A DNA stretch of 64,000 nucleotides from Acidimicrobiia bacterium (GCA_965248705.1 CBDFJY010000002.1:1322980-1386979); one strand, 5' to 3'. Shown: positions 13,308 to 61,609, counted from the first letter of the stretch. A program made the numbers and translations. Notes: generated by a model not told the origin, from the sequence alone.

Positions 13308-14309
13308 TTGGAGGTCCCTATGGAAAGCGCTCTGCAGACCGAGCTCGAACTGGAGATTGATCATCCGAAGCAGGGTCGCGTAAAGACACCTGTTTACCTC
13401 ATCCAAGCTGGGATGACTGATAAAATTAGCCCTATCAGATCGCACCAAATCGAAGTTTCGCCTATTCCCGCGGTAAACGTCGCCTCGGTGCCGCAACGCA
13501 GTCCGCTCCGCTATCCAGGCGGCAAGACATGGCTGGTCCCTCATATCCGTGCTTGGCTCAGCAGCTTCTCCGAGAGGCCCAGGTTGCTGGTCGAACCCTT
13601 CGCCGGCGGGGGGATTGTTTCACTGACCGCCGTTATGGAAAATTTGGTTGAACGTTGTCTTATGGTTGAGCTGGATCGCGACGTGGCTGCCTTCTGGCAC
13701 GCAGCCCTGCGTAAAGGGGAGGAACTCGCTGAAAAGGTGTCATGCTTCACGCCCACGAGAGAAGCGGTGCACTTGCTGGCGAGCCGCGAGACACACGACA
13801 TCGTGGAACACGGTTTTCGCACCCTCGTGTTGAATCGGACCCGCCGGGGTGGCATTCTGGCTCCGGGCGCCTCGTTCAGCCGAGTGGGTGAAAACGGCAA
13901 AGGGCTTGCTTCTCGCTGGTATCCCGAAACGATCGTGAATCGCTTGCAGGAAATAACGAAACACGCCGACCGCATCAGCTTCTGTGAGACGGATGGCATG
14001 AAGATGCTGGAAGCTTTCTCGGGCGAACTTGGTGGTGGCGCAGCTGTTTTCGTGGATCCGCCTTACACCGCCGGGGGCAAACGGGCCGGCAAGCGATTGT
14101 ACGCGCACAGCGAAATAGACCACCCACTGCTCTTTGAGATGCTCGCCGAGAGTGGCGCCGATTTTCTTATGACATACGATCTCTCATACGAAGTCGCCGC
14201 CTTGGTGCAAAAGCACGGCTTCCATGCTGTCCAGGTGACCATGAAGAACACGCACCACGCCCGGATTCCTGAATTGGTGATCACCCCTCGACCTGTGTTT
14301 GGTCCATGA
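13308..14309 (+). CDS. DNA methyltransferase, Dam-like D12 class (N6-adenine type motifs)
   Basis: LRYPGGK, EPFAGGG (FxGxG SAM motif I) and FVDPPY (DPPY motif IV). The true start may be the internal ATG near 13413. Lower GC than the host. Confidence 0.8.
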   Translation: MEVPMESALQTELELEIDHPKQGRVKTPVYLIQAGMTDKISPIRSHQIEVSPIPAVNVASVPQRSPLRYPGGKTWLVPHIRAWLSSFSERPRLLVEPFAGGGIVSLTAVMENLVERCLMVELDRDVAAFWHAALRKGEELAEKVSCFTPTREAVHLLASRETHDIVEHGFRTLVLNRTRRGGILAPGASFSRVGENGKGLASRWYPETIVNRLQEITKHADRISFCETDGMKMLEAFSGELGGGAAVFVDPPYTAGGKRAGKRLYAHSEIDHPLLFEMLAESGADFLMTYDLSYEVAALVQKHGFHAVQVTMKNTHHARIPELVITPRPVFGP

Positions 14310-15184
14310 GCACCCGTTACGGGATCGCGGAATGGTATGGCCGCCTATTTTCAGAACTCTCTCCCGAAACCCGGCATACCCTGGCAAGGAAGGCGTTGCG
14401 AGAAGATCCAGAGGCTCCGCCCTGTCCGTTTCAGAAGAACAAACCTCCCTGCCGCAAGCGTGGCGGAGTGTGTTCCCTGCGCCGTTACCAAAGAGGTGAG
14501 AGTGATCGCATCGGCCTTCCCAAGGGCGATCCGGTCGTAGTGTGCCCTGCTCGATTTGAGGAAGGACAATTATTGGTCGAATGGCTCGCTGAGATTGTCG
14601 GTTTCTCATCGAGCGAGGCGAGGCTGGCCCGCGAAGTGCCTTTCATGCAGGGCACCAGCACCGGTAAACCGGCTGGGAAGATAGATTTGGTAGTGGCCAA
14701 GGCCTCCAACGGCGACCTCAAATGGTATGGCTTGGAGATCCAGGCTGTTTATTTCTCAGGCAGAGGAATGAACTCCGAGTATTTGGGTCTTCGAGATGAC
14801 GACTGTAAAGACCCGCCGTTTCCGGGAGCGGTTCGCCGGCCGGATTGGCGATCCTCAAGTGCAAAGCGCCTCATGCCACAGTTGCAGATCAAGGTACCAA
14901 CCCTCCGTCGGTGGGGATCGAAGCTAGCTGTAGCGGTGGATCGGCCTTTTTTCGATTCGATGGGAGGGCCGAGTTCTGCTCCAAGCAGTGATCTCAATGA
15001 TGGTGATATCGTGTGGATGGTCCCGAGGCTCCTACCCAACGACACGGGGGGCAACGCGTTGTCCCGTGGCCACTGGGAAGTTCTTACCTTGGAGGAATCC
15101 AGCAGGAGACTTCTTGCCGCGGAAACCATCCCGCGTCGCGCCTTCGAACAAACACTAAGAGAGAAGCTGGAGCCCATCGGCTAG
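14306..15184 (+). CDS. putative type II restriction endonuclease, NotI-family-like
   Basis: Its ATG overlaps the MTase TGA (ATGA). A Cys cluster PPCPFQKNKPPCRKRGGVCSL, then VVCPARFEE and YGLEIQAVYFSG, resemble the NotI motifs TGTCPFL..SCVK..RGVCVV, LVCPNRALD and YGVLEIQTMDFHG. The comparison is from memory. Confidence 0.5.
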   Translation: MSTRYGIAEWYGRLFSELSPETRHTLARKALREDPEAPPCPFQKNKPPCRKRGGVCSLRRYQRGESDRIGLPKGDPVVVCPARFEEGQLLVEWLAEIVGFSSSEARLAREVPFMQGTSTGKPAGKIDLVVAKASNGDLKWYGLEIQAVYFSGRGMNSEYLGLRDDDCKDPPFPGAVRRPDWRSSSAKRLMPQLQIKVPTLRRWGSKLAVAVDRPFFDSMGGPSSAPSSDLNDGDIVWMVPRLLPNDTGGNALSRGHWEVLTLEESSRRLLAAETIPRRAFEQTLREKLEPIG

Positions 15185-15340: not shown

Positions 15341-15700
15341 TTAGAGGTCGGCTTTTTCGCGGGATTCTTCGTATTGGTGGAGGGCTACCAGGAACCCGAG
15401 GAAGAGCACGGCCGAGACCACGGTGAAGGTGATTGGGATGATCCGCACCTCGAAGGCGTTGAGTCCCTCGATGTTGGCCGGGCGGGGACCTCGGGGAGCG
15501 TAGAGGACGAAAAGCAGGCTGCCGATGGTCATCCAGGCCGAAATCCCGGCCCCGGTCACCAAGAAAGCCAGCTTCTTTCCCAGGTTGGTGTAGTTCAGTA
15601 GGTAGACGGTGCCGTAGAAAACCAGGATCGCCGTCACCAAGAGGATGATTCCGGTGACGAACAGATTGGCCGAAAGCAGGGATCGAAACAGTTCACGCAT
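15341..15700 (-). CDS. small integral membrane protein (3 predicted TM)
   Basis: Hydrophobic 119-aa ORF, last gene of the respiratory operon. Its 3' terminus is duplicated at 13150..13212. Confidence 0.5.
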   Translation of the reverse strand: MRELFRSLLSANLFVTGIILLVTAILVFYGTVYLLNYTNLGKKLAFLVTGAGISAWMTIGSLLFVLYAPRGPRPANIEGLNAFEVRIIPITFTVVSAVLFLGFLVALHQYEESREKADL

Positions 15701-15703: not shown

Positions 15704-17410
15704 TCAGTTCCCCTTGCCGTTGAGGTTGCCTGCCCACAGGTAGTCCACCAGCAGATCCAGGTCGTCGGAGGAAAGCACCGCCCCGAAAGCGGGCATCTGC
15801 CCGTTCCCGAACCCGCTCACCCCGTAGGGCAGGTCGGCCACCGCCCCCACCAGCAGGAAGGAGCGAAGGTCTTCCTTGGCGATGAACTGCACTCGCGGTC
15901 TGCCCTTCCACACTGCCGGCCCGAACCCTCCCGAGCCTGGCTCGGAGGCATAGGGTGTCCCCGCTGACCAGCCGGAAGTGTGACAGCGCGCACAATAGCC
16001 GGTGAACACTCCAACCGCCCGGGTGGCCTGGTCCGTATCGCCGTCAAAAGCCGCGTCGGCCACTCCTTCCAGATCTATCTCCCACTTCCGCTCCATCTGG
16101 GCGTCCCGCAACTCTTCGAGGCCGGCGCGGGCGGGAACGAGCAGCCGCTCGGCGTTTTCGGTTCGCACCGACAGGTTTATCGCCGCGCTCGCCATACCGG
16201 AGACCGCGGTGGCGGCTGCCCGGTCGTCGGTGATCCCCCCGCCCGAGGAAGCCCGCTCAGGATCCAGGTTGACCACCATCAGGGTGTTGGGGCGGAGCGC
16301 TGTCCGGGCTATGGCCAGTTCGGCGGTGAGCACCCTTTCCAACCGGTCGGAGAGGCCGTCTCCATCCGAGTCTTCCTCGTCCTCGGCGTTAGCCGCCGTC
16401 TCGATAGAGGCAAGCCGCAACTGGAGAATCGGGGCCTGGGGCGCCATCGCCCGCAGGGTGGAGCGGGCAAGGTCGGCCACGGCGGCGTCGGGTCGCCCGT
16501 CCGTTGCGGGGTTTTGCGGATCGAAGGTCAAAGCTTCGATGTCGGTGAAGTCGAACAGGGCGGCGGCTGAGGCGGTTAGCTGGGAGATCGTCACCTCGGA
16601 GATATCCGACAGGTTGTCCCCGTCGCGGTCGATTCCCTGGTCCGAGAGTTCGAGGGTCCGGCGGGCGAGGACCACCAGTTCGGCCATGGTCTCGGCATGC
16701 CGTGGCGCCTGTTCTATATCGGCGATCAACTGCTGTTGCTCGATGATGGCCCTTTCCAGCGACTGGTCGGCGTTCTCCAGAAGGCTCAGCTGGTTCACGA
16801 CCATGCCGTCGGTTTTGCGAAGGGTCTCCTGTTGGGAGATTTGGATGCTCTCCAGGTAGTTGACGATGTCAAAGATCTGCTGTTCGTTCATGGGCCCCCC
16901 TCCCACGGTGCCCCAGGGGGGCATGGGGGAGTTGCCCCGCCCGTATGTAATCCAATAGGTGATGATGTCGCGGTCGTAACGCAGGAAGACGTCATCGAGA
17001 GCCGGCGCCGACCAGGACACGTTCACCCCGGTCCGCTTCTCCACATAGCTGGCCACTCCCCCCACTCCGCTAGGGCCGTGACAGCTCCAGCAGTCGGCAT
17101 CGTCAGGTCCCACCAACTCGGCGCCCCGTTCCACCGACTCCTCGTGGAACTGATCGACGAAGCTGAGTTGACGATCGGTCTCACTCAGGTAGTAAACCGC
17201 CAGTCCGACCGCCAGGAAGGCGGAGAGCAGAACTGCGCCCTGTTGGATGCGCTCCAGCCGGCGGGTCTCCAAAGCGTCGTCGGTGACCCCCGGCGCCTGG
17301 TTGGGAGGTATTCCTTCCCGGCGACGGGATCGAAGCGCGGCCACTCCCAAAAAAGAGAGCCAGATCACCGCTCCCACGACGACCAGGGTTATTACCAGCG
17401 AAGAGTCCAT
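15704..17410 (-). CDS. membrane-anchored diheme cytochrome c with a large acidic insertion
   Basis: Two CxxCH motifs (CWSCH near the N-terminus, CARCH near the C-terminus). Each has a downstream Met ligand context (MPPWG, MPAFG). Two N-terminal TM helices. A roughly 300-aa Asp/Glu-rich insert carries DRDGDNLSD and DSDGDGLSD motifs. Confidence 0.8.
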   Translation of the reverse strand: MDSSLVITLVVVGAVIWLSFLGVAALRSRRREGIPPNQAPGVTDDALETRRLERIQQGAVLLSAFLAVGLAVYYLSETDRQLSFVDQFHEESVERGAELVGPDDADCWSCHGPSGVGGVASYVEKRTGVNVSWSAPALDDVFLRYDRDIITYWITYGRGNSPMPPWGTVGGGPMNEQQIFDIVNYLESIQISQQETLRKTDGMVVNQLSLLENADQSLERAIIEQQQLIADIEQAPRHAETMAELVVLARRTLELSDQGIDRDGDNLSDISEVTISQLTASAAALFDFTDIEALTFDPQNPATDGRPDAAVADLARSTLRAMAPQAPILQLRLASIETAANAEDEEDSDGDGLSDRLERVLTAELAIARTALRPNTLMVVNLDPERASSGGGITDDRAAATAVSGMASAAINLSVRTENAERLLVPARAGLEELRDAQMERKWEIDLEGVADAAFDGDTDQATRAVGVFTGYCARCHTSGWSAGTPYASEPGSGGFGPAVWKGRPRVQFIAKEDLRSFLLVGAVADLPYGVSGFGNGQMPAFGAVLSSDDLDLLVDYLWAGNLNGKGN

Positions 17411-17420: not shown

Positions 17421-18287
17421 CTATATGCAGGAGGGGCCTTGCGGATAGGATACGGATTGGGCGATGGCCCGGGGGGTTTCCACGATCATTCCGGTTCTGA
17501 TGACCAACCGTCCTTCCTCGGTGACGTTGACCGCGAATCGGTCGAGATTCCGGGGGGCGGGACCGGCGAAATACTCTCCGATCGAGTTGTACTTGGATCC
17601 GTGGCAGGGGCATTCGAAACCTTGGGAGTCGTTGCACCAGGGCACCCGACATCCCAGGTGGACGCAGCGCTGATAGAGGGCCATCAGCCCACCGGCGACC
17701 ACGTCTCTGTCCGCGAATTGCTGGCTCATCTCGGTGGGCGCCGGGACTACATAGGCGCGGGCGTCGGGGATGAAAGCCGGGGTGACCAGGCCGGCGCTGT
17801 CGGTCATCGCCGGTACCAGGTCGGCGGCGAGTCCGGCGTCCACATCGCTCCCGAAGCCTCCGGTTATTTTGGGCCACAAAAAGGCCAGGATCTCTATCCC
17901 CATGATGCCAAACCACGCGACCGACATGGCGGCCAGGGACCGGTTGAAGAACTGCCGGCGGGTGACCCCCACCTCCTCGGGGGAGGCTTCCACGATCACC
18001 TGAGATTCGGTGATGGGCGCCAGCGCCTCCATCACCTCGACCGGGGCCTCTTCTTCCGCAACGGCCGGGGCTTCGGCCTCCGACGGCTCCGTGTCCACAG
18101 AGGTTTCCAGCACCAAATCCATGGAGGGAGCGGAACGGTCGGCCTTCCGGGCGCGGCGTTCTACCCGCTTGGGCCAGAGAGAGGCCGAGTCGGGATCCGC
18201 GCGGCGGAAGGCGATGGTGAAGGCGCCAATCGCGGCGGCGATGGCCACCGCCGCCACCCCGATGATGATCAGCTCGACGCTGTCCAT
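17421..18287 (-). CDS. Rieske [2Fe-2S] iron-sulfur protein
   Basis: CVHLGC..CPCHGS Rieske boxes. An internal twin-arginine-like TRRQFF sits ahead of the hydrophobic anchor. There is an extra N-terminal TM and an acidic extension. Confidence 0.85.
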
Positions 18288-18309: not shown

Positions 18310-19182
18310 TCAGTGGCCCCCAAAGTCGACCCAGTCTTTCAGGTCATCGAAAAATATCCCGTCCACCCACGGGTAGGCAAAGTTGAATCCCGGCCCCCGG
18401 AACAGCACTCCCAGGATGGTGAGGGTGGCTGCTCCGGCCAGGAAGATGGTGAACATCATGATGGCCAGTTTGCGGTCGGAGGGGCGGGTGGAGGGGTTGC
18501 GGTCTATATAGGGAATCATCATGAATCCCACCAGCCCGATCACGGTCGGCACCGTGACTCCGGCGATTTGGGGGTCAAAATAGGAGAGCATCTCCTGGAG
18601 ACCCAGGAAATACCAGGGTGCCTTGGAAGGGTTGGGGGTGGCATTGAAGTTGGCCGATTCCAGGAGGGGCGCCTGGAGGATGACCGAGAGAACCAGGAGA
18701 AAGGCGGTCATCGCCAAAAGGGCGGTGAACTCGGTGATCATCAGATGCGGCCAGGTGTTTACCTTGTCGGTGGGGTCGGCCTTTACCTGTTGGATGGCTC
18801 GGGCCTTGACCACGGTGAGCAGTCGCTGATGGCGGACTCCCTCGGGCAGGTCGGTGGGTGGGACCGAGGGACGAACCGAGACCGAAGCCGCCAATCGTCC
18901 GTTCCCGGCGCCGTTTTCCCCACTCGCCGGGGCGGCTGTGACGGCCGGGGTGATTACCGGAGCGGGCTCGGGCGGCGGGGGAGCGGGGGGAGTCTCGGAG
19001 ACGGATGGCGGGGGGGCGGTGGGAACCATGCGGGGGGCGGGCACCACGACCTTCTCTGCGGCTATTTCGGTGACCGGGGCCTCTCCGCGCATCTCGGCCA
19101 GAACCTGTTCAACCGGCAGGCCCAATGCCTTGGCCTTGGCTTCGGCGGACCGTCTCAACAGTTCTTCAGGGATTTGTGGCAC
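18310..19182 (-). CDS. cytochrome b C-terminal-domain protein (b6f subunit IV / PetD-like) with a Pro-rich N-terminal extension
   Basis: WPHLMITEF.., ..APWYFLGLQEMLSYF.. (the PEWY-type motif) and ..IMMFTIF... The first 130 aa are Pro/Ala-rich low complexity. Confidence 0.7.
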   Translation of the reverse strand: MPQIPEELLRRSAEAKAKALGLPVEQVLAEMRGEAPVTEIAAEKVVVPAPRMVPTAPPPSVSETPPAPPPPEPAPVITPAVTAAPASGENGAGNGRLAASVSVRPSVPPTDLPEGVRHQRLLTVVKARAIQQVKADPTDKVNTWPHLMITEFTALLAMTAFLLVLSVILQAPLLESANFNATPNPSKAPWYFLGLQEMLSYFDPQIAGVTVPTVIGLVGFMMIPYIDRNPSTRPSDRKLAIMMFTIFLAGAATLTILGVLFRGPGFNFAYPWVDGIFFDDLKDWVDFGGH

Positions 19183-19201: not shown

Positions 19202-19990
19202 TCAGAGAGGCCCGGAGATGCCGCCGTCTTTGCGGACTCTCCAAAAGTGGACCGCCAGGAATATCACGATGATGAACGGCAGAAAGAGAACATGAAGCAC
19301 ATACCATCGCAAAAGTGTCCCCGCCGTTACCTCCACCCCGCCCAATAGGGCGAATTTCACCTGCGCGCCTATCACAGGAACGAACCCGGCCATGTTGGTG
19401 CCCACCGTCACCGCCCACAGAGCCAACTGGTCCCAGGGAAGCAGATAGCCGGTGAAGGAGAGGAGCAAGGTCAGGAGCAGCAGGATGACTCCCACCACCC
19501 AGTTGAACTCGCGGGGAGGCTTGTAAGCCCCGTGGTAGAAAACCCTGGACATGTGGAGAAACACGGTTAGCACCATCAGATGGGCGCCCCAGCGGTGCAT
19601 ATTCCTCATCAGGGAGCCAAAGGCGATGTCGGTGGAGAGCGCCTGCACATCGATGTAGGCCCGTTCCGCGGTGGGGGCGTAGTAGAACATCAGGAAAATG
19701 CCGGTCACGGTCAGGAGAATGAAGAGGAAAAAGCTCATCCCTCCCAGACAAAGCGTGTAGGAGAGCTTGACGCCGTGTCGCTTCACCTTCACCGGATGGA
19801 GGTGATAGAGCACGTTGTTCATGATCACATAGGAGCGGTTGCGGGGAGTGTCGGTGTAGCCCTTTTTGAAGGGAGAGCCGGGTCGCAGCATCGAATCCAT
19901 GAACTGGCCCGACCAGACTCGTCCCATCAACCCCGACACTGAGGTGCGGGCTTTGGTCAGAAGGCCTTGTCTGCCGTTTTGGTTGCTCAC
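19202..19990 (-). CDS. cytochrome b6-type (N-terminal heme-binding half of a split cytochrome b)
   Basis: ..YHLHPVKV.., ..[17 protein letters not shown].. and ..LPWDQL..WA..V.. show the characteristic b-heme His pairs on helices B and D. Confidence 0.85.
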
Positions 19991-19999: not shown

Positions 20000-20449
20000 T
20001 TACCAACGCATTCCATAGGTATAGCCGTGTTTGAAGTCCCTTTGGCCGGTGTCCACCTCCCAGGGCGCCGCGTTGAGGCCCATCTCCTCGGCCTGGGCGG
20101 CCAGGGACCCCTCGAACTTGCCCAGGGAGATGACCCCGGTGGGGCAGCGATCGATGCACAGGGCGCAGCGGGTGCACTCGTTTTCGTCGACCACGAAGAA
20201 ACCGTAATTGGTGACGTCTTCCCGTGGGTCATCGACGTTGACCGCTTCGTCGATGGCGTCCATAGAGAGATAGAAGATGCACTTCCACGGGCAGATGTCC
20301 ACGCAGCCCTCGCAAATGATGCACTCGGACTGATCGATGTGGAGAAACTGCTTGGGGCGAATCTTGCCCAGGTAGAAGTCGTTTTCCACCAGGGCGAGCT
20401 GGTAGTCGTCTCGAAAGGGCGGGGTCTCATCTACAACTCCGCGGGGCAT
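20000..20449 (-). CDS. 2[4Fe-4S] ferredoxin-like protein
   Basis: Two CxxCxxCxxxCP motifs: CIICEGCVDICP and CTRCALCIDRCP. Confidence 0.8.
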   Translation of the reverse strand: MPRGVVDETPPFRDDYQLALVENDFYLGKIRPKQFLHIDQSECIICEGCVDICPWKCIFYLSMDAIDEAVNVDDPREDVTNYGFFVVDENECTRCALCIDRCPTGVISLGKFEGSLAAQAEEMGLNAAPWEVDTGQRDFKHGYTYGMRW

Positions 20450-20450: not shown

Positions 20451-21083
20451 TCAGCGGTCTCCCTTCACCAGCGGTCGGCCGTACGGGGACAACTGGACGG
20501 GGGGAGTGGGCTTCTTCTTGGGCGACTTGTATAGCTGCTGCAGTTGGTAGGCGAAAAAACCGGCGGCGCCCAAGGCCACCATGTTGTAGGTTGCCGAGAT
20601 GATGTCTTTGATGGCGCCCCAGCTTATCGCCACCTCGTTGCCCAGCATCAGCAACGGTGGAATGTTGAGTGCGATTCTCTGTCCCGACCAGTCGAGATCG
20701 GTCTGGGAGAGGTTGAGCCATTCGGAAGGGACGATCCCGAATATCATTACCAGTTCCATCCAGACCAAAAAGGCGGCGAAAGCGGCTCTCGCCCAGGTCA
20801 TTTTCTGGTTGAGCACCCACAGGAAGGCGGCGCCCGCCAACATCATCTGGGAGGCGGCCAGGGCTCCGAGGTAGCCGAGGCTCTTCCAGAACCAGCCCCG
20901 TGGTATCCAGTTGAAGAAGTCCACCACCAGGGTCGTGGAGACCCCGTTGACGATCTCGGTCTCCGGCAGCTTGGAATAGTGAATCCAGATCACCGCCACG
21001 GTCATGAGGGCGGCACCCATCAACAGCGACGACCACCCTATGAGGATCCTTTTTTGCTGGTCTAAAGAGCCGATGCGATGCAT
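20451..21083 (-). CDS. integral membrane protein, first gene of the cytochrome operon
   Basis: 210-aa Trp-rich polytopic ORF. Its stop abuts the ferredoxin start. No family recognised. Confidence 0.45.
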   Translation of the reverse strand: MHRIGSLDQQKRILIGWSSLLMGAALMTVAVIWIHYSKLPETEIVNGVSTTLVVDFFNWIPRGWFWKSLGYLGALAASQMMLAGAAFLWVLNQKMTWARAAFAAFLVWMELVMIFGIVPSEWLNLSQTDLDWSGQRIALNIPPLLMLGNEVAISWGAIKDIISATYNMVALGAAGFFAYQLQQLYKSPKKKPTPPVQLSPYGRPLVKGDR

Positions 21084-21222
21084 CTGTACCAGATGGCCTT
21101 CCAGAGTCGAACCACTCCTATTTTTACACCGGAGCGGGTCTCAAACAAAGTTCTAACGCCTTTCTTCTTCACAAAGCCGACCATACGCCCTGAACGCCCC
21201 CGCGCCAAGGTGGGTTTGGAAC

Positions 21223-22770
21223 TTGCTATCTTTTGGAGCGGCTCTCATAGCTAACCTTTCCTTTTCCGGGGGTAGCGCTCTGAGTACAACCAAGAATAAT
21301 CAAGTCGGACATCCGAAAAATCGAGTCGGACGTTACGCGGCCTGGTCGGACGCGCTGGGTCCTGACGCCGCGGCCAAATGGCACATCATCATCTCCACCG
21401 CCTTTTTGGCGGTGGCCGGGATCGTATGGGTGGTAGGGATGGTGGAGCTGCGCTTCTCCGGAACGCTGACCGGGCCTTTCTCGTACGGGCGCATCCGCCC
21501 GATCGCCCTGTTGCTGGCCGTGGTGGGCTGGCTGACCCTGTCGCTGGCCGGTGGGGCCTACTACATTCTGCCCCGGCTCACCGGAACCCGGATGCGCAGC
21601 GAAGGCTTGGCGTTGGCGGGTGGGGTGGGAACGGCGCTGGTGACGGTGGTGGGAGCGGCGGTGGTGTTGTTGGGCGGAGGAGACGGGACCGGCCCTTTTT
21701 CTCTTCCCTGGTGGGTCTCTTTTCCGCTGCTCGCCACCCTTCTGGCGCCGATGGTGGTGACCGTCTCCACGGTTCGCCATCGACAAGAACCCAACATCTA
21801 CGTTTCTTTGTGGTATGCCCTGGCCGGGGTGGTTTGGCTTCCTCTCCTCTACCTGGTGGGCGCGCTTCCCGCACCCTCAGCCTTGGGGAGCGCCCTCTCC
21901 GGGTCGATATCTCTCTTCGGGCTCTCCAACCTGTGGGTGGTGGGAATGGGAGTCGGGCTTGCCTACTACGCCCTGGTGAAGGAGACGGGCAACCCCCTGG
22001 CCAGCCGACAGTTGGCGAGAGTGGGATTCTGGTCTCTGGCCTTTGCCTCGGCGTGGGCGGGATCCGCCCCCTTGGTTTTCGGTCCCATTCCCGGCTGGCT
22101 GGAGGCGGTGGCATTCCTGATGACGCTGGCGCTTCCTGTCTCGGCGCTGGCCAACGCCGCCAACCTCGCTTTGACCACCGACCAGTTCTGGGCGGAAAGG
22201 AAAGAGCGTCCGGTGGTGGCCGCGGCCTTGGCGGGCGTCTTTTTTGCTTTGATGACGGCGGCTCTAACCAGCTTTGGAACCATCCGCTCGGCGGCGGCGG
22301 TGGTGGGACTCACCCCCTTCTGGGACGGGGTGCTCTATGCCACCCTGTTCGGCGCGGGAGGCCTCCTGGTGGCTGCCTGGTCCTATCAGGCGCTGCCGTC
22401 GATCATCGGGCGGAAGCTGGCGGGGGTGAGGCTCGCCCGTCTTCATCTGCGTCTCACCTTCTGGGGAGTGGGTTTGACTTCCGCGCTGCTGGTGGGGGCC
22501 GGCTTGGTTTCGGGCTATAGCTGGGCGGGGGGTTCCTACAGTGGCATAAGTCCCACGGGCGAAGGCTGGGGGAGCCTGGTGGGCATGTCCTCGCTGATGG
22601 TGGGGTTGTCCATACTGTCGGGCCTGTTGACCCTGGTGGGCCAGCTCTCTTTCTGTTTGGCCATTGCCAGGACCTTTACCTCCGGACCCGCGTCCACCCA
22701 GGAGATATTCACTTTGGTTGCTGCTGATCGGTCGCCCGATTCCGAAGCTGAGGAAGAGGAAGAGGAATGA
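21223..22770 (+). CDS. polytopic membrane protein resembling heme-copper oxidase subunit I (CcoN-like) but lacking canonical His ligands
   Basis: At least 12 hydrophobic helices. ..FSYGRIRPIALLLAVVGW..GGAYYILPRLTG.. parallels the CcoN FGRLRPLHTNAV..YYVVQR region, with His replaced by Ala. There are only 4 His in 515 aa. The C-terminal tail is acidic (EAEEEEEE). It precedes a CcoO-like gene with overlapping stop and start. Confidence 0.4.
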   Translation: MLSFGAALIANLSFSGGSALSTTKNNQVGHPKNRVGRYAAWSDALGPDAAAKWHIIISTAFLAVAGIVWVVGMVELRFSGTLTGPFSYGRIRPIALLLAVVGWLTLSLAGGAYYILPRLTGTRMRSEGLALAGGVGTALVTVVGAAVVLLGGGDGTGPFSLPWWVSFPLLATLLAPMVVTVSTVRHRQEPNIYVSLWYALAGVVWLPLLYLVGALPAPSALGSALSGSISLFGLSNLWVVGMGVGLAYYALVKETGNPLASRQLARVGFWSLAFASAWAGSAPLVFGPIPGWLEAVAFLMTLALPVSALANAANLALTTDQFWAERKERPVVAAALAGVFFALMTAALTSFGTIRSAAAVVGLTPFWDGVLYATLFGAGGLLVAAWSYQALPSIIGRKLAGVRLARLHLRLTFWGVGLTSALLVGAGLVSGYSWAGGSYSGISPTGEGWGSLVGMSSLMVGLSILSGLLTLVGQLSFCLAIARTFTSGPASTQEIFTLVAADRSPDSEAEEEEEE

Positions 22771-23729
22771 GCGAGATACTGGAAGCGGCCGCTCGCGCCG
22801 TGGGCGCCCCCGCCGAGTTGGTGCAGCGCTCCGCCGAAGCGCGCGCCGGCGCCAGCGGCGTCTCTGTCGAAGAAGTTCTGACCGCCTGGGCGGGAGGTGG
22901 AGTGGCGCCCCCCTCCGTTCCACCCGCGGCTCCCGTTCCACCCGCGGCTCCGGCGCCTGCCGCGGCTCCCGTTCCACCCGCGGCTCCGGCGCCTGCCGCG
23001 GCTCCCGTTCCACCCGCGGCTCCGGCGCCTGCCGCGGCTCCCGTTCCACCCGCGGCTCCGGCGCCTGCCGCGGCCCCCGCTCCTGCCGTACCATTTCCCC
23101 CGCCTGTGGCCCCTCCAGTCGCAGCGCCGCCTGCCGCAACCCCCGCACCCCAGCCGTCGCCCGCGCTTGGCGCCGCGCCGTCGGCGCCTACCGCCCCTGT
23201 CGCCCCTGCGAGGCCCGCCCTGGTCACGCCCGGGGTCGCGGCGGGCCCGCCCCCGGTGCTGAAAGGTCGGGTGGATCGGCCGTTCCGGTATCTGTTCGGC
23301 GCCACTGCCCTGTTGATCCTGTGCTTGGGCGCCACTCTGGTGGTCCCCGCCCTTTCGGAAACGGGCCGGGGAGCACTCCACTCCGAGATCCCCTTCACCG
23401 CGCCGGCGCGGGCGGGAAAAGAGATATATCTGGCGGAGGGATGTGCGGGCTGTCACACCCAGATGGTCCGTCCCATCGTCGCCGACGCCCAACTGGCCGC
23501 TCTGGCCGGGGTGGGCGGGGTTACCCTGTCCGACACCAATCAGGTGATCGGCCGCCAGCGTTACGGTCCCGACTTGGCCAACGTGGGCAGTCGGATGTCC
23601 CCCGAGGACATCGAGGCGGTGCTTTCCGGCGAGGGAGACCATCTTTCCTACCGGGGCGACTGGACTGATTCCCTGGTGGCATACCTGGTGGAGTCGCGAG
23701 TTTTGACCGAGGACGGATCCAGTGAGTGA
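22767..23729 (+). CDS. CcoO/FixO-like monoheme cytochrome c with an N-terminal cytoplasmic domain and Pro/Ala repeat linker
   Basis: [34 protein letters not shown] closely follows the CcoO signature (G.x.Y..GC..CHSQM.RP..GPDL..VGGRYS). One TM ([20 protein letters not shown]) lies upstream of the heme domain. Confidence 0.6.
22914..23075. repeat. perfect 36-bp tandem repeat, 4 copies plus a partial copy, in frame ([12 protein letters not shown])n
   Basis: cccgttccacccgcggctccggcgcctgccgcggct repeated head-to-tail at 22932, 22968, 23004 and 23040. The last copy has one substitution. Confidence 0.9.
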
Positions 23730-24729
23730 GAATTTGGCGAGAGCGGCCCAGGCCATGGGTGCGCCGGAGGTTTTGGTGCAACGCTCGGCCGAAGCCCGGT
23801 CCCAGGCAAGCGGGGTCCCCGTCGAAGAAATTCTGGCGGCCTGGGCGGGTGGTGGCTCGGCGCCGACGGCCTCCTCCGCGGCTCCGGCTGGCGCTCCCGA
23901 TCCCGTACCTCCCCCGGCCCCAACCCAACCAGCCGCGCCGCCGCCCGTGGTTACCGCGCCTGTGGTTACCCCGCCCGCGGCTCCGAGGCCGGTGTCCCCC
24001 TCACCCGCTCCGGCGGCCCCGGTCGTGGCGCCGCCTCTTCCTCCTCCCTCGGAGGTGAGCACCAAGGAAGCGATTTCCTTCCCGGTGGTGGTGTCGGTGC
24101 CCACCGCCCGCCTGACGGAGAGAACCTCATCCACCCTTCCCCGCTGGCTCGCCGCTCTCTTCCTGGTCGTTCCGGTGATAGGTCTGCTCTATCTGGCGGG
24201 AAACTCCGCCCGGGCGGGATGTGTGGAGGGGGGAGTGGAGTTGGCTGTCAACCGGATCAACTCCACGGTGGTCAACTGCGACGGCAGCGAGTTCACCGGT
24301 CGCGCCGACCAATCGGCGGGGATTTTCCTGGTGATGGGGGAAACGATTTTCGAAACTTGTGCCGGATGTCATGGGGCCACCGGTGAAGGGGGAGTGGGGC
24401 CGGCGCTCGCCACCGTGCTCTCCACTTTTTCGGCTTGCGCGGCCCACATCGAGTGGGTGACCCTGGCCACCGGCGGCTTTCAGAACGCCGGAGAAACCAC
24501 CTACGGAGATTTGGCCAAATCGGTGGGCGGCGGGGGCTTCATGCCCGGATTCGCGACCAGTAACAGCCCCGAAGAGATTGCTTCGGTGGTCTCCTTCGAG
24601 CGGATCCGCTTCGGCGGGGCTGATCCCGATCAAACGCTGATGGAGTGTGGATTGGTAGAGGGCGACACGGGTGAGAGTGACACGGGAGAAGGCGAGGCGC
24701 CTCCCGCGGAGGAGGAAGGAAGCGAATGA
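23722..24729 (+). CDS. membrane-anchored c-type cytochrome (CxxCH) paralogous in its N-terminus to 22767..23729
   Basis: CAGCHGATGEGGVGPAL (class I cytochrome c). The N-terminal 45 aa, [45 protein letters not shown], are about 70% identical to the N-terminus of the preceding protein. A Pro/Ala linker and one TM follow. Confidence 0.6.
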   Translation: MSENLARAAQAMGAPEVLVQRSAEARSQASGVPVEEILAAWAGGGSAPTASSAAPAGAPDPVPPPAPTQPAAPPPVVTAPVVTPPAAPRPVSPSPAPAAPVVAPPLPPPSEVSTKEAISFPVVVSVPTARLTERTSSTLPRWLAALFLVVPVIGLLYLAGNSARAGCVEGGVELAVNRINSTVVNCDGSEFTGRADQSAGIFLVMGETIFETCAGCHGATGEGGVGPALATVLSTFSACAAHIEWVTLATGGFQNAGETTYGDLAKSVGGGGFMPGFATSNSPEEIASVVSFERIRFGGADPDQTLMECGLVEGDTGESDTGEGEAPPAEEEGSE

Positions 24730-26342: not shown

Positions 26343-27389
26343 TTAGGAGGGGGGTGCTTCGCTTGATGGCGGCGGGTTTTCAAGTAGTCGGTATAGCTGT
26401 CGGGCGATGTACCGTTTGAGGCAGCGGCGGGTTTCTCGGGTGGTTTTGCCTTGGCTGGTGCGTTTGGTGATGTAGGCGCGGGTTTTGGGACAGTATCGGG
26501 CGCGGCTGATGGCGATGGTGTGGATGGCTTGGTTGAGTTGGCGGTCACCGCGTCGGTTCAGCCGGTGGCGGGTGTGTTGTCCCGATGAGGCTTCCAAGGG
26601 GGCTACGCCGGCTAGCCGAGCGAAGGCTGCTTCGTTGCGGCAGCGGCGAGGATGGGACCAGGCAATGAACACTTGGGCGGCTGTGATGGGGCCGATCCCG
26701 GGTTGTTGGAGCAGTTGGGGAGCTACGGTTTGGACTAGTTCGGTGATAGTTGTTTTGAGTTGGGCTGCTTCGGTGGTGAGTGCATTGATTCGCCGGGCGA
26801 GGGAACGCATGGCCTGTTTGGTGGCGGTGTGTTCGTTGGCCGGTGCTGATGTGAGTCGAAACCTGTGGCATTTAGCGACCAGAGCAGCAGTGGTAACACC
26901 TCGGAGTTGGTCTCTGAGATCGACTGGCGCGGTCACTAGGAGAGCTTTCAGTTCGTTGATCGCCGATGTTCTAGCTGTTATTGCGCCTCGTCGGGTGGTT
27001 TCCAACACTCGTAAGGCTTCTCGGTCTCCCCGAACTCGCGGTACAGAAGGTCGGAAGCGGCCCAGCGCCTGGCGGGCGGCCCGGCGAGCGTCCAGGGCAT
27101 CGGTCTTGGCGCCGTCGCCGCTGGGGGTGGGATCGTTGAACTCGGTCACCAGTTCCCCACTAGCGACCAAATAGGAGGTCACACCAGCTCCGTAACTGCC
27201 TGTGCCTTCCACAGACCATACCCGATCGGCGGCCTGGGTGTATTGGTCTACCCACTTCAACAACCGCTTGTATCCCAGCCCGCTGGTCTCGAACACCGCA
27301 GACGCCTGTTCTCCGGTGGTGGCGGTGTCCACTACCGACGCGGTGACCCGGTCACGATCCGGGTCGATCCCGATCACATGTTCTACCAA
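26343..27389 (-). mobile_element. IS110-family transposase gene (copy 1)
   Basis: ..HVIGIDPDRDRVTASVV.. DEDD N-terminal domain. C-terminal ..EASSGQHTRHRLNRRGDRQLNQAIHTIAISRAR.. is the Transposase_20-like region. The ATG-defined ORF extends to 27560, but the conserved core begins near 27389. Confidence 0.75.
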
Positions 27390-27474
27390 TGAGGCCAACA
27401 CAACAACCTTCTTTCCTTGTTTGCTACCTGGTTTGTCCAAGGAGGTGCGATCCGAACGGCAGGACTGTGATGAG

Positions 27475-28649
27475 TCACACCCCTTTGGGGTGGACAGGCT
27501 TCTGATCAGGCCAGCGCGGTACGCCAGGTCGGCGCTGGTGGTCAATGTCGGACAGATCATAGGAAAGACACCAAACCGGGTCAGTCAAATTGAGGGTCAC
27601 GACATCAATTCCAGCACCGTACCTGATAGCCTCCAAGGGCACCCGCCATATTCTCACAGTCAAATTGGGGGGGGGGGGTTGGAGGTGTTTGTAGACGCGG
27701 TTGGAGATGTGGCGTTTGAGGTTGCGGATGGCTTCTTTGGGGGTTTTGCCTCGGGCGAGTTGTTTTTGGTAGTAGCGGTGTCCTTCGCTGCCGGGTTGGG
27801 AGATTTGGGTGAGGGCTGCGGTGTAGAGGGCTTGGTTGATGCGGCGGTTTCCTCCTCGGTTGAGTCGATGGCGTGTTATGCGTCCCGAGCTGGCTTCCAG
27901 TGGTGCGGTGTCGTTGGCCATGGCAAATTTGGCTTTGGTGGGGTAGTGGGCGGGGTTCCCGACCTGGGCGATGATCTCGGCGGCGGTGAGGTTGCCGATG
28001 CCGTGGATGTGGGTGAGGGTGGCGCCGGTGGTTTTGACCACCGTGGTGATCTGTTGGGTGAGTTCTTGGATCTGTCGGCTCAGGGAGCGTATGTGGCGGG
28101 TTCTTTGTTTGGCGATCCGGGCGCGGGTGGTGGTGTCACGGGCGAGCATTCGTGTCACGCGGTCAACAGCGGACGGGTTGGTGAGAGCGGTGGGAAGTTT
28201 GGGATGATCGCCGCGCAGTTGGGTGAGATCGGCGTGGAGCCGGTTGATCTGGCGGGTGCGGGTTTCGACCAGTTCACGGCGGTATCCGACCAAAAGCCGC
28301 AGGTCTTCTGTGATACCGTCGGGGCGGCTACCCGGGCGATTAACAAAGCGTCAGTGGAATCGTTCTTGACAGGCGTGCGTTGTCTCCGCCGTTGCCTACT
28401 GGTCATCTGTGGTGGTACTTCCACCACCTCGATACCCGCTTCCACAAGCGCCAAAGCCGCGGGACGTCCGTAATGACCGGACCCTTCGATAGCTACCCGC
28501 CCGGCGCCGGTTTCCCGCGCCCAGGCCACCAACCGGGCACGACCCCCGGAGGTGTTAGGGACACAACGGGTCCCGACCTGGCGCAGGGCCTGGTCGATAA
28601 CACAGCCCATCAAAGTATCCTTGTGCGAGTCGATTCCAATAACAAACAT
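27475..28649 (-). pseudogene. IS110-family transposase (copy 2), split by a frameshift
   Basis: The N-terminal frame reads MFVIGIDSHKDTLMGCVI..ALLIARVAAP and runs to junk after about 28300. The C-terminal frame reads ..LLVGYRRELVETRTRQINRLHADL..EASSGRITRHRLNRGGNRRINQALY... A single-nucleotide shift near the gccgcccc run at about 28300 would join them. The C-terminus reads through a C12 tract (PPPP). Confidence 0.7.
27667..27678. repeat. G12 homopolymer tract
   Basis: caaattgggggggggggggttggagg. It encodes PPPP on the minus strand inside the IS110 copy 2 C-terminus. With 11 G the frame would stop two codons later (..PPPPI*), which resembles the copy 1 C-terminus. Confidence 0.9.
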
Positions 28650-56282: not shown

Positions 56283-58169
56283 CTACAGAGGTTCGAGTTC
56301 CAAAGCCTGCTCGGCCGATTCCAGGGTTTGATTTCCCGCCAGCACCGGCAGGAACAGGTCGCCATAGCGGGAAAGACGCTCCCAGAGGTTGGTGATATCA
56401 ATGTCGCCGTTGCGGAAATGTCCCACCTCTTCCCAGAGCAGGGGAACAGAGACGGGAGCGCCGGGAAGGGGGCGTACCGAGTACACCGAGGCGATCGTCT
56501 GGCCGAAAGCGTTGCGGTTGTGGTCGATGAACACCTTCCCCGCCCGCTTGGGCTTGTCCCAGGCGATGGTCAGGTCGTCGGGGTTGGCCGCCACCAACAA
56601 CCCGGCCACTGCTCCCACGAAACGCCGCACCCGCTCATAGGTGTGGACGGGCCGGAGGGGAAGGTAGACGTGCATGCCGCGGCTTCCCGAAAGCTTGGCG
56701 ACCGACCGCAGCCCCAGTTGCTCCAGCGCCATCCCCAGCAGGCGGGTTCCCGCCACCACCTGGGACCATGAGGAGCCCTCGGCCGGATCGAAGTCGAATA
56801 CTGCCCAGTCGGGGTATCCGAGGTCCGGGTGGCGGGAATGAAAAGGGTGGGTTTCCACACACCCCATGTTGGCGAACCACATCAGGGACTCGGGGTGGTC
56901 GGCGCAGAGAAAGTCGATATTCCCGCCCGCCGAGTGCGAGCCCACCGGGAGGGTACGCATCCACTCGGGCTGGTGTCCCGGCGCTCGCTTCTCATAAAAA
57001 GACGGTCCCCCGATCCCGTCTGGATAGCGGGACATCGAGAGGGGGCGGTCCCGGAGATGGGGGAGGAGCGTGGCGGCTATCGAGGAGTAGTAGGTGATCA
57101 GATCACCCTTGGTGTAGCCCTCGGGAAAAAACGGCTTCGACAGGTTGGAGAGCCGTAGGGGAAGAGTGGCGTCGGTTGGCCGGTAGCGGTCTTCCACCGG
57201 CTCGACCGGCGTGGGGTCGGGGAAGTCCACCAGCCCCGATCCGGCCGGCAGGCGGGTGGACGGCTCTTCTTCCAGCCGGTGGAGAACCGAGCGAAGTTCG
57301 GCGCCGATGGCCAGGTGGCTCTTCCACTCCCGCGCCTCGGAGATGACCACCATCGCCAATCCCGTCTCATGGGCGGCCTCGGCCAGAGGGCCGATCCGAA
57401 GAGTCCCCTCTCCGTAGGGAAGATGGCTGATCTCCCCGGCGGGTCCGAATCGGTTGTCGGTGAACTGGGTGTGGAGGGGAGAGAGCATCCAGGCGGGGAA
57501 GGAGTCTTTTATGAAGGCCATCACCGTTTTGAAGCGCTCTGTTCCGGTCAGTCCGCCGCCCGACATGGCGTGAAGATGCGCCCAGTCGATCACCGGTCTC
57601 ACGAAGGGGAACTCCGCAGCCAGCAGGGCAATGTCGCCCAGCGTTCCGAAAGAGCGGTTATTGCCGGCGGTCTCGATCCCCAGTCCCACCCCCAGGTGGG
57701 CCACTTTGGGCGCCAGCATCTCCAAACGTTCTCGGATCGTCTCCATTACCTCGTGCGGCGGACGACCCTTCAGATGACCGGCGTGGGCGACGATCAAGGG
57801 AGCGCCCAGTTCCCGTCCGAGTTTCATGGTGTGCTCCAAAGCCGAGAGGCACATGCGGGCCTTCTCGGGGTCTTCGACGGTCAGCACCGCGAAATAGGGA
57901 GCGTGCGCAGAGAGCCGAAATCCCCGGGCGGCGGCCTGTGTTCCGAACTGGGCGCACCGCGCCTCTTTCCAAGGGAAACCTTTGACGAACGAAAGCTCAT
58001 AGGATGAGATATTCTGCTTTGCTAGGCCGTCCAGGAAAGCTCCGTCGTCGGCGCCCCGAGGAGGTGGGGGGCCCGACACTCCGAACAGGATGGGTTCCCG
58101 GCGTTTGCGGGTGGTGGCCATGGCCGCTATTAATGGTTGCCGAGGCACCGTCCAACCCCGCGCGGGCAA
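56283..58169 (-). CDS. fusion protein: AP endonuclease IV-like TIM-barrel domain plus LigD-type primase-polymerase (PolDom)
   Basis: N-terminal ..LSAHAPYFAVLT.. and ..VAHAGH.. resemble Nfo (HAPYLINL). The C-terminal half contains ..GSRGMHVYLPLRP.. and ..KVFIDHNRNAFGQT.., typical of the NHEJ LigD polymerase domain. Confidence 0.6.
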   Translation of the reverse strand: MPARGWTVPRQPLIAAMATTRKRREPILFGVSGPPPPRGADDGAFLDGLAKQNISSYELSFVKGFPWKEARCAQFGTQAAARGFRLSAHAPYFAVLTVEDPEKARMCLSALEHTMKLGRELGAPLIVAHAGHLKGRPPHEVMETIRERLEMLAPKVAHLGVGLGIETAGNNRSFGTLGDIALLAAEFPFVRPVIDWAHLHAMSGGGLTGTERFKTVMAFIKDSFPAWMLSPLHTQFTDNRFGPAGEISHLPYGEGTLRIGPLAEAAHETGLAMVVISEAREWKSHLAIGAELRSVLHRLEEEPSTRLPAGSGLVDFPDPTPVEPVEDRYRPTDATLPLRLSNLSKPFFPEGYTKGDLITYYSSIAATLLPHLRDRPLSMSRYPDGIGGPSFYEKRAPGHQPEWMRTLPVGSHSAGGNIDFLCADHPESLMWFANMGCVETHPFHSRHPDLGYPDWAVFDFDPAEGSSWSQVVAGTRLLGMALEQLGLRSVAKLSGSRGMHVYLPLRPVHTYERVRRFVGAVAGLLVAANPDDLTIAWDKPKRAGKVFIDHNRNAFGQTIASVYSVRPLPGAPVSVPLLWEEVGHFRNGDIDITNLWERLSRYGDLFLPVLAGNQTLESAEQALELEPL

Positions 58170-58568: not shown

Positions 58569-58709
58569 GTTGCACGGGCTAAGGTTTTGGATGGGGCAGG
58601 AAAGAGAAAGCACATTGATGAACATGCTTAAGCGTCCAAAATGGCGTTCACCGGATCACCGCCGGGTGATAGGGGGCGAGGTGATGACCTGATGGGAGGT
58701 GATGACCTG

Positions 58710-59576
58710 ATGGATGGAGACATCCGGTTCGGGATCTGCACCGATCAGTCGATGCCCTACGCCACTTTGGTGGACCGGTGGCGCTACTTTGAGGAACTGG
58801 GGTTCGACAGTGTCTGGGACTGTGACCATTTCCTCCGGCCCAGCAATCCCTCCCATCCCTACTTCGAGGGGTGGACTCTGTTGGCCGCCCTTGCCACCCA
58901 AACCACCCGGATCCGGGTGGGGGTGCTGGTGGGAAGCAACACTTTCCGTCACCCCGCGCTCTTGGCGCAGCAGGCCATCACCATCGACCACATCTCGGAG
59001 GGGCGCTTGGAGTTCGGTTTCGGCGCCGGATGGTTTGTGGAGGAACATCAGCGGTTCGGGATACCTTTCGGTGATCCGCCGGTGCTGGTCGAAAGGTTCC
59101 GAGAAGCGGTCGAGATTATCGACTCGCTCCTCTGTGGCCGGGAAGTCACCTATGAGGGTCGGCACTATCAGCTGAGTGAGGCCCGGCTCCGGCCCCGGCC
59201 GGTGCAGTCTCCCCGTCCGCCTCTCACCCTGGGCGCACACCGTCCTCGTATGCTGGCGATTTGCGCGCGGTTCGCCGACCGGTGGAACTCGTTCGGGACG
59301 GTGGAGGAGATCGCCGAGCGCAATCGGCTGCTGGATCAGGCCTGTGGGAGGATCGGGAGGGATCCCACCGAGATCATCCGCTCCTTCTACGGGTGGTCAT
59401 CCAACATGGCCGCCCAGGGTCTGCCCGACCCGTGGTCGAGCCCCGACGCCTTCACCGAGGTGGTGGGCAGATACGTCGAGGCGGGGGTGAACGAGTTCAT
59501 TCTGGATCAACCCCGTCCCGAACAGTTCAAGATCGCCGAACGGATCGTCTCGGACGTCATCGAGCCGACTCGTTGA
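58710..59576 (+). CDS. LLM-class (luciferase-like monooxygenase family) flavin/F420-dependent oxidoreductase, tandem copy 1
   Basis: MDGDIRFGI..VDRWRYFEELGFDSVWDCDHF..GW..LAAL..T..IR.G.LV..N..RHPALLAQQA.T.DH.S.GRLE.G.G.GW is the LLM fold pattern. Start chosen at the ATG after the GGAGGTGA RBS. Confidence 0.7.
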   Translation: MDGDIRFGICTDQSMPYATLVDRWRYFEELGFDSVWDCDHFLRPSNPSHPYFEGWTLLAALATQTTRIRVGVLVGSNTFRHPALLAQQAITIDHISEGRLEFGFGAGWFVEEHQRFGIPFGDPPVLVERFREAVEIIDSLLCGREVTYEGRHYQLSEARLRPRPVQSPRPPLTLGAHRPRMLAICARFADRWNSFGTVEEIAERNRLLDQACGRIGRDPTEIIRSFYGWSSNMAAQGLPDPWSSPDAFTEVVGRYVEAGVNEFILDQPRPEQFKIAERIVSDVIEPTR

Positions 59577-60655: not shown

Positions 60656-60706
60656 GTGCGACTGCCCGGCGGGCCCGTTTGTGATGAGAGTGGAGGCGAT
60701 GCTCCG

Positions 60707-61570: not shown

Positions 61571-61609
61571 GGTGGAACCGTCTGTGATGAGAGTGAAGGT
61601 GATGTTCCG

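Follow-up and report, generated by a model that had tools for sequence, protein, structure and literature searches.

Can the fold of a haem-copper oxidase (HCO) be kept by selection once every residue that holds its haems and copper has gone? This question is raised by a three-gene operon at positions 21223 to 24729 of a 64,000-nucleotide stretch of DNA from an Acidimicrobiia bacterium (GCA_965248705.1, CBDFJY010000002.1:1322980-1386979), the whole of which is called the window below. The first open reading frame (ORF1) encodes a homologue of CcoN, subunit I of cbb3-type oxidases, in which none of the canonical ligands is found, while the other two (ORF2 and ORF3) encode membrane-anchored cytochromes c. 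The reading to which we lean is that ORF1 would be a cofactor-free pseudo-enzyme, serving as a membrane scaffold in an electron relay at a Rieske/cytochrome b6 complex encoded by the divergent operon next door.

All three genes lie on the + strand, in the order ORF1 (21223-22770, 515 residues, 12 transmembrane helices, predicted start codon TTG), ORF2 (22767-23729) and ORF3 (23722-24729). Adjacent genes overlap by 4 nt (ATGA) and 8 nt, respectively, in agreement with a preliminary description of the sequence that had reported three products with overlapping stops and starts, the first of them a CcoN-like protein of 515 residues with at least 12 transmembrane segments. ORF1 is a true C-family HCO homologue. 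It matches Pfam family PF00115 (COX1) at 96.7 bits, where the gathering cutoff is 34.8 bits, over profile positions 2-414 of 436, and it matches TIGR00780 (ccoN) at 109.5 bits, below the equivalog cutoff of 583.15. Its only sequence relatives of solved structure are cbb3 CcoN chains (best 6xkw_n, E = 6.7e-20), and the use of a family profile improves the match to these chains to 3e-32. An AlphaFold2 model built from 100 homologues consists of 12 long helices (pLDDT 89.5, pTM 0.89). Compared by Foldseek, it superimposes on CcoN of 9G83, 6XKW, 3MK7 and 8SMR (TMq 0.80, TMt 0.87-0.89) with a root-mean-square deviation of 2.6-3.0 Å (up to 3.2 Å among CcoN chains), and the next-best matches are NorB and ba3 subunit I. 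A transporter-family identity was considered and was ruled out by the Pfam, NCBIfam, PDB and fold comparisons; the relationship to HCOs, a point singled out beforehand for checking, is clear by both profile and fold. The public gene call for this protein, P0001, has 443 residues and begins at Met73, which cuts off the first transmembrane segment (ORF1 residues 1-72, 21223-21441). That the longer frame is right is shown by conservation among homologues, which begins at about residue 45, and by the model, which places a helix at residues 49-77. Codon 9 is ATG in several relatives and ATA in the window.

What, then, has become of the active site? The ligand positions, given here in P. stutzeri numbering, were located by profile alignment to CcoN 3mk7_A and read out with hmmalign across 100 family members. 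The haem b ligand H60 maps to A95 (codon 21505-21507), such that the RPLH motif reads RPIA, just as had been noticed earlier; this column holds A in 88 members, S in 8, T in 3 and G in 1. The other haem b ligand, H347, maps to Y372 (22336-22338; Y in 81, V in 5, A in 3, H in 3, with others including T and F), and the haem b3 ligand H345 to V370 (22330-22332; V in 55, I in 40, T in 3). Among the CuB ligands, H207 is replaced by F232 (21916-21918; A, F, S, W or G in the family), and H257 and H258 by A282 and P283 (codons 22066-22071), the former column being mostly A and the latter Q in 77 members and P in 20. The cross-linked tyrosine, Y251, is S276 (22048-22050; A, S or G in the family). Neither His nor Tyr is found at H207, Y251, H257 or H258 in any of the 100 members, and none of the seven columns is His-conserved among them. 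Canonical CcoN sequences passed through the same alignments read HHYHHHH, so the ligand columns are reliable and the loss is neither an alignment artefact nor chance. The earlier claim that ORF1 lacks the canonical His ligands can therefore be extended: all six His positions are non-His by profile alignment, and the loss is family-wide.

Little remains in ORF1 that could take over from these residues. It has only the four His that the preliminary description had counted (H30, H54, H186 and H408); in the model all lie on the cytoplasmic side, distant from the periplasm-proximal haem positions, and some family members have no His at all. In the alignment of 100 sequences, not one column reaches 90% conservation of His, Met, Cys or Lys. 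Given this and the family-wide loss of ligands, binding of haem b, haem b3 or CuB by ORF1 is very unlikely, and a protein that bound none of them would be unable to reduce O2 or NO. Other features of the oxidase have been lost as well. In CcoN, E122 coordinates a Ca2+ that bridges both haem propionates (PMC10256718). This periplasmic-loop residue is G157 in ORF1 and Q, G or E in the family, with Glu kept in 26 of the 100 members; E125 is S160 in ORF1 and is replaced in nearly all of them. E189, part of an R-x-E motif in a cytoplasmic loop, is an invariant residue specific to the family. As for proton uptake, the K_C path reportedly includes S240, H243, Y317, E323, Y223 and N289 (Buschmann 2010, Ahn 2014). 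Position 240 is Ala in every one of the 100 members and position 243 is Gly in 99, while Y317 has become A, G or T and E323 L, A or V in nearly all; only Y223 and N289 are retained. Judged by its sequence, ORF1 fails every feature that defines the cofactors of CcoN and should not be annotated as a cbb3 oxidase.

ORF1 nevertheless bears the marks of a gene in use. Its ratio of nonsynonymous to synonymous substitution (dN/dS; Nei-Gojobori, against six relatives) is 0.13-0.16, compared with 0.13-0.20 for the Rieske protein, 0.12-0.19 for the dihaem cytochrome c and 0.14-0.21 for a flanking housekeeping gene; cytochrome b6 (0.05-0.08) and the ferredoxin (0.004-0.04) are held more tightly. The family alignment has 20 invariant and about 65 near-invariant columns, and its conserved charged residues (R118, R187, E189, K253, R262, R397 and E494) cluster on the cytoplasmic face of the protein. 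Homology to an enzyme, loss of the cofactor residues and purifying selection together fit what would be expected of a pseudo-enzyme. The family is also widespread. A word-indexed search returned 108 homologue clusters at 38-88% identity, of which those with names are called 'cbb3-type cytochrome c oxidase subunit I' and come from metagenome-assembled genomes (MAGs) of Acidimicrobiia. When GTDB species were scanned with one genome for each, 199 proved to encode an ORF1 relative. The best 80 of these are all MAGs, labelled mostly Acidimicrobiia or Actinomycetota with some generic or other labels, and the species that encode ORF1 are apparently all Acidimicrobiia. Species bearing the module have come from sponges, corals, seawater and soil.

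The partners of ORF1 are recognizable cytochromes. ORF2 (320 residues) was described from the outset as a CcoO-like monohaem cytochrome c, and this is borne out by a match to PF02433 (FixO) at 48.8 bits (cutoff 29.6), which covers only profile positions 14-114 of 219, together with its CAGCH and GPDL motifs. It also matches P. stutzeri CcoO (3mk7_B) at 7.9e-14 and TIGR00781 at 49.8 bits, below the cutoff of 200.65. The protein begins with a cytoplasmic domain of about 45 residues (22767-22901, +), followed by a Pro/Ala-rich linker, a transmembrane segment (residues 173-200), the haem site CAGCH (residues 226-230, 23442-23456) and GPDL (residue 267, 23565-23576). The linker contains a 36-bp tandem repeat (22924-23083, 4.4 copies, 98% match) that encodes a repeated 12-residue unit between the N-terminal domain and the membrane anchor, on the cytoplasmic side; its length seems variable among relatives. 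Conservation across 69 homologues extends to the CxxCH, a QMVRP motif and GPDL. ORF2 has no counterpart of the C-terminal half of CcoO, where the Met136 region lies; in ORF2 homologues no conserved Met follows GPDL, and a His about 20 residues past GPDL is kept in at least 95% of them. For this reason the sixth haem ligand of ORF2 may differ from that in cbb3 oxidases. Ser102 of CcoO, which contacts the Ca2+ site, aligns with an Arg.

ORF3 (335 residues) occupies the position of CcoP and, as had been proposed, is a second membrane-anchored cytochrome c: it matches PF00034 at 26.2 bits (cutoff 21.3) and has one transmembrane segment (residues 137-163) and a single CAGCH haem site (residues 213-217, 24358-24372, +). 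An N-terminal domain of about 45 residues (23722-23856) is again followed by a Pro-rich linker. Resemblance to CcoP itself is slight, with a weak match to FixP_N (PF14715; 13.3 bits, E = 0.068) and a score of 11.5 bits for TIGR00782, where the cutoff of 179.95 is not reached. Homologues of ORF3 conserve the CxxCH, an 'MP' Met-ligand motif and four further Cys.

With what might such a trio work? The divergent operon on the - strand offers a candidate. It begins with a 210-residue membrane protein (20451-21083) that has at least three hydrophobic segments and matches no Pfam or NCBIfam family. Next come a 149-residue 2x[4Fe-4S] ferredoxin-like protein with no transmembrane segment (20000-20449), the most conserved product of the cluster at 75-99% identity, and a split-type cytochrome b6 (19202-19990; PF00033, 165 bits). 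The latter scores 307.9 against the ExtP equivalog, above the cutoff of 290, and the Cys of its CLGG motif aligns with the haem-ci Cys35 of M. laminosus b6. A PetD-like subunit IV follows (18310-19182; PF00032, 34 bits; ExtQ, 58 bits, below the cutoff of 150), in which an N-terminal domain again precedes a Pro-rich linker, and then a Rieske [2Fe-2S] protein with an N-terminal transmembrane segment and a long linker (17421-18287; PF00355, 33 bits). The operon is completed by a 568-residue dihaem membrane-anchored cytochrome c with two Cytochrome_CBB3/Cytochrom_C domains (15704-17410) and a 119-residue membrane protein with three hydrophobic segments (15341-15700). Both the first and the last gene are conserved in all related loci. 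The Pfam matches of cytochrome b6, subunit IV and the Rieske protein uphold the earlier remark that a bc-type complex is encoded next door. By its sequence this is a b6-type Rieske/cytochrome b complex with a haem-ci cysteine, and the b6 and its adjoining 2[4Fe-4S] protein look like an uncharacterised b6c-type complex.

Several observations tie the two operons together. When the ten window proteins were compared by tblastn with 80 related loci, synteny of all 10 genes was seen at each locus whose flanks were long enough, even where ORF1 identity was as low as 39%. In addition, subunit IV, ORF2 and ORF3 share in all loci an N-terminal domain of about 40 residues (about 36-45), with the core PExLVxRSAEA(R/K)A…G…V(E/D)xVLAxWAGG, after which come a Pro/Ala-rich linker and the first transmembrane segment. 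The domain has to lie in the cytoplasm, given that the linker precedes an N-in anchor. It matches no Pfam family, and a profile search made with it returned only fragments of 47-83 residues, which are uninformative on other architectures. In six distant relatives (L016, L017, L018, L021, L022 and L079) the domain occurs twice in tandem on subunit IV. The region between the operons (21084-21222) contains blocks conserved among relatives. One of these, CCTATTTTTACACCGG at 21118-21133, is kept in 11 relatives, and a 21-nt block, CTTGCTATCTTTTGGAGCGGC at 21221-21241, spans the predicted TTG start of ORF1 and does not vary even in the third positions of codons. The region showed no sigma-70 consensus promoter, and a promoter and terminator scan gave nothing beyond shuffle expectation.

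The loss of ligands appears to be older and wider than the clade of the window. A filter-free hidden Markov model search of 1.84 billion representatives returned 1452 relatives of ORF1, 164 of them below 1e-30. The best 45 or so matches have no ligand residue in any ligand column, and several more divergent ligand-free groups outrank the first canonical CcoN (about 195 bits). A neighbour-joining tree, rough and used only for this point, shows several deep ligand-free lineages. In one group of 620-750 residues, the ligand-free domain is fused to a CcoO-like haem domain with CxxCH and, 40 residues on, GPDL; this group keeps the canonical S.MPSY Met motif. Two such fusions (L081 and L084) lie within a Rieske/b6/subunit IV/ferredoxin/dihaem cytochrome c cluster, and the fused protein is modelled as one unit of 13 helices plus the cytochrome (pTM 0.88). 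In another protein, P0139 (L085), a cupredoxin takes the place of the haem domain, and its gene is flanked on one side by a ferredoxin/b6 operon, which is accompanied by cytochrome c maturation genes, and on the other by canonical caa3 genes for COX2 and COX1.

Three further relatives show other arrangements. P0146 (L083, 8309-9703) belongs to a ligand-free clade with a separate FixO partner and is encoded beside a nuo operon; the genes transcribed divergently from it encode an FHA-domain flavoprotein, an Fe-S/cNMP-binding protein, an 871-residue multihaem cytochrome and CcmE, and no Rieske/b6 genes were found near it. P0155 (L086, 7756-9210) retains a partial ligand set with the pattern YHYHLYQ and could represent an intermediate, or else a form that was rewired in another way. 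Downstream of it are a FixO-cytochrome c-cupredoxin fusion, more cupredoxins and a Caa3_CtaG copper chaperone. P0158 (L087, 9001-10467) is a fully liganded CcoN whose operon also encodes FixS, a Rieske protein, a full-length cytochrome b and a 1355-residue cytochrome c. This bc-cbb3 super-operon gives a plausible picture of the ancestral state of the module.

Taken together, these data suggest the following model, which we consider somewhat probable. ORF1, ORF2 and ORF3 would descend from a ccoN-ccoO-ccoP operon of a cbb3 oxidase. The CcoN-derived 12-helix protein, which we infer to be free of haem and copper, would hold the CcoO-like haem and the haem at the CcoP position beside the complex of Rieske protein, b6, subunit IV, ferredoxin and dihaem cytochrome c. 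Natural fusions ('Rosetta-stone' evidence) indicate that a protein of this kind can carry a CcoO-type cytochrome. Electrons would pass from quinol to the Rieske centre, then to the dihaem cytochrome c and on to the haems of ORF2 and ORF3, which would hand them over to a distinct terminal acceptor; a caa3-type oxidase encoded elsewhere is the most likely one. An A-family oxidase is suggested as the acceptor by the cupredoxin-fused variant beside caa3 genes; this assignment, like the direction of electron flow and the physical association with the b6 complex, is inferred by comparative genomics. The shared domain of about 40 residues probably tethers the two halves to each other, or both to something in the cytoplasm that they bind in common, for instance the ferredoxin. 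Together with the cluster of charged residues on the cytoplasmic face of ORF1, the domain suggests that assembly or ferredoxin contact may take place on that side. The preliminary description had offered a structural or pseudo-enzymatic supercomplex subunit as one of its possibilities, and it is this possibility that purifying selection, invariant synteny, natural fusions and the shared N-terminal domain, all of them genomic associations, favour.

A number of points weigh against the scaffold model. No terminal oxidase is encoded in the 64-kb window, as judged by tblastn with caa3 COX1 and COX2, and the same scan of loci L001-L086 found one within 10 kb of the module at L085 only, the other 85 loci having none. 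Twelve helices make a costly scaffold where the two cytochromes to be held have a single helix each. A motif in transmembrane segments 6 and 7 around the former active site (YY..VK, W245, W253, G255) is strikingly conserved, which could reflect a retained non-redox activity of ORF1. The haem ligation of ORF2, and with it the docking of this cytochrome on ORF1, may differ from the cbb3 arrangement. ORF1 also evolves faster than its neighbours, with 39-87% identity among loci compared with 75-99% for cytochrome b6 and the ferredoxin, and all source genomes that are named are MAGs.

Four other explanations can be considered. The trio may be a free-standing membrane cytochrome c module for another partner, such as a periplasmic dehydrogenase or an alternative reductase, being co-regulated with the b6 complex without physically being part of it. 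The lack of an adjacent oxidase gene in the window and in most related loci can be explained in this way, and the P0146 clade, which sits away from Rieske/b6 genes, implies that the scaffold can work in other contexts. However, the divergent synteny with Rieske/b6 genes is invariant across the Acidimicrobiia family and extends to the fused clade, and if both cytochromes did not share an assembly or a partner with subunit IV, their possession of its domain would be difficult to account for; we consider this explanation improbable, though it deserves some weight. A quite unlikely one is that ORF1 has a non-redox activity, that of a channel for protons or ions or of a conformationally coupled transporter, which the cytochromes would regulate or simply accompany. 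Retention of the 12-helix fold with very high model confidence, conservation of the core motif just mentioned along with N289, T293 and W298, and the charged cluster on the cytoplasmic face would all suit such an activity. Yet polar residues of the only known proton path of the C family have been replaced (S240A in 100% and H243G in 99% of members, Y317 by A/G/T and E323 by L/A/V), the membrane core has no conserved charged or polar residue, and ORF1 is similar to no transporter family.

A new type of oxidoreductase, in which ORF1 would bind haem or another cofactor through unconventional ligands, is very unlikely. It could draw on the Tyr found at the H347 position in 81% of the family, as Tyr can ligate haem, and on the GRxRP motif that is kept before the lost H60. 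That Tyr, however, is V, A, T, F or I in other members and other residues in the deeper clades, and the remaining ligand positions hold residues such as Ala, Gly, Val, Ile, Gln and Pro. Nor have the acidic residues E122 and E125 been spared, being Gly and Ser in the window, and nowhere in the family is there a conserved His, Met, Cys or Lys to serve instead. Finally, ORF1 could be a functionless, decaying remnant of a dead cbb3 operon, given that every catalytic residue is gone and that it evolves faster than the adjoining cytochrome b6 and ferredoxin genes. This is scarcely credible. The frame is intact, its dN/dS of 0.13-0.16 and conservation across species rule out a pseudogene, the protein has been kept over 199 species and several deep clades with its many invariant and near-invariant columns, and its structure is predicted with confidence; on such evidence of selection and conservation the relic explanation is effectively refuted.

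The consequences reach beyond this locus. In the searched literature, no His-less or cofactor-less HCO homologue, no Acidimicrobiia case and no such pseudo-enzyme was found described, although subscription literature may differ; ORF1 would be the first described case there of an HCO subunit I fold selected without any redox cofactor. The finding bears on how respiratory enzymes can be recycled into structural parts. It also defines an uncharacterised respiratory module, in which a pseudo-cbb3 is joined to a Rieske/b6 complex that has both a haem-ci cysteine and a 2[4Fe-4S] protein. More tentatively, and with the balance tipped slightly towards doubt, the ligand-free CcoN-like proteins may form a large unrecognised branch of HCOs that act as cofactor-free adaptors in a new supercomplex architecture of Acidimicrobiia. 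They would be obligate subunits and come in stand-alone, CcoO-fused and cupredoxin-fused clades. Through their tethered c haems or copper domains, the haem-ci/ferredoxin Rieske/b6 complex would be wired to terminal oxidases, with the shared cytoplasmic N-terminal domain as an assembly latch. Public pipelines label proteins of the ORF1 family 'cbb3-type cytochrome c oxidase subunit I', and MAG studies report caa3- and cbb3-type oxidases (for example PMC8357290). Whenever such a cbb3 call goes back to a member of this family, there is no ground for deducing a high-affinity oxidase from it. Should the broader proposal hold, the naming of 'cbb3 oxidases' in MAGs of Acidimicrobiia would be systematically wrong, and so would any microaerobic life style deduced from it. 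The variety among the clades, with haem c fusions as well as a cupredoxin fusion beside caa3 genes, yields structural predictions that can be tested.

The window as a whole has about 63% G+C, and the genes around the module are ordinary chromosomal housekeeping genes. A NotI-type restriction-modification pair (13308-15184), comprising a D12-class N6-adenine methyltransferase and a NotI-family endonuclease (PF12183, 150 bits), lies in a stretch of lower G+C (0.58-0.60), with an SPFH gene on one side and the respiratory cluster on the other. The pair is absent here in the closest relatives (L001-L003) and present in L008 and L012, in the latter upstream of SPFH, and it is probably a strain-specific insertion. 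Just downstream of a conserved S-adenosylmethionine hydroxide adenosyltransferase gene are two IS110-family transposase ORFs on the - strand (26343-28293) with no counterpart in related loci; one is full length (26343-27560) and the other has only the Transposase_20 domain (27475-28293). Farther along are a 628-residue protein (56283-58169, -) whose N-terminal part is a xylose-isomerase-like TIM barrel/AP endonuclease 2 domain and whose C-terminal part is a LigD primase-polymerase domain, and five consecutive luciferase-like monooxygenase (PF00296) paralogues (58641-63560, +).

How does the module compare with systems already known? The nearest is the cbb3 oxidase CcoNOP itself (P. stutzeri 3MK7/5DJQ, R. 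capsulatus 6XKW). The trio has the same order as ccoN-O-(Q)-P and the same fold; ORF1 retains the CcoN motifs GRxRP, YY..(V/P)K, FW, WAG and P.W, and ORF2 retains the CcoO signature CxxCH-QM(V/I)RP...GPDL. In contrast to cbb3, ORF1 is without H60, H207, Y251, H257, H258, H345 and H347, without E122/E125 and without most K_C residues. ORF2 corresponds only to the N-terminal half of CcoO, and a single haem in ORF3 stands against the two of CcoP; both cytochromes carry an extra cytoplasmic domain and Pro/Ala linker. As for the accessory genes, no ccoQ or ccoGHIS is nearby, a Pfam scan limited to window ORFs having returned no CcoQ, FixG, FixH, FixI or FixS.

Dead enzymes within respiratory complexes are not without precedent. 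The M16-peptidase-like core proteins of mitochondrial bc1 are dead enzymes that have been kept as structural subunits. Like ORF1, they show a fold that is selected after catalytic loss, but unlike ORF1 they are homologues of soluble-domain peptidases. Within the HCO superfamily, the NOR-type offshoots (cNOR, qNOR, NOD and eNOR/sNOR/gNOR/nNOR), found from environmental sequence, no longer reduce O2 (PMC11214002). They keep the haem ligands and an FeB or CuB site and have exchanged no more than one His, and Murali 2024 mentions HCO families without the Tyr but none without the His ligands (PMC11214002). The ORF1 family differs from all of these in keeping no haem or metal ligand set.

For the complex as a whole, the bc1-cbb3 supercomplexes (by their PDB titles, R. 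capsulatus 6XKW, P. aeruginosa 8SMR and the alphaproteobacterial 9G83) are the closest parallel, as an HCO unit is there joined to a Rieske/cytochrome b complex; the haem c relay proposed here is modelled on these structures. CcoN, however, is an active terminal oxidase in these supercomplexes, whereas ORF1 appears to be without redox centres, and the partner here, a split b6/subunit IV complex, has the haem-ci cysteine and includes a 2[4Fe-4S] protein; its association with the trio is suggested by synteny and the shared domain. The b cytochrome pair can be likened, by sequence score, to ExtP/ExtQ (NF040969/NF040970, 'selenite/tellurite reduction operon'), which likewise has a 4Fe-4S protein alongside. 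Unlike ExtP/ExtQ, the pair in the window is accompanied by a Rieske protein, a dihaem cytochrome c and the pseudo-cbb3 trio.

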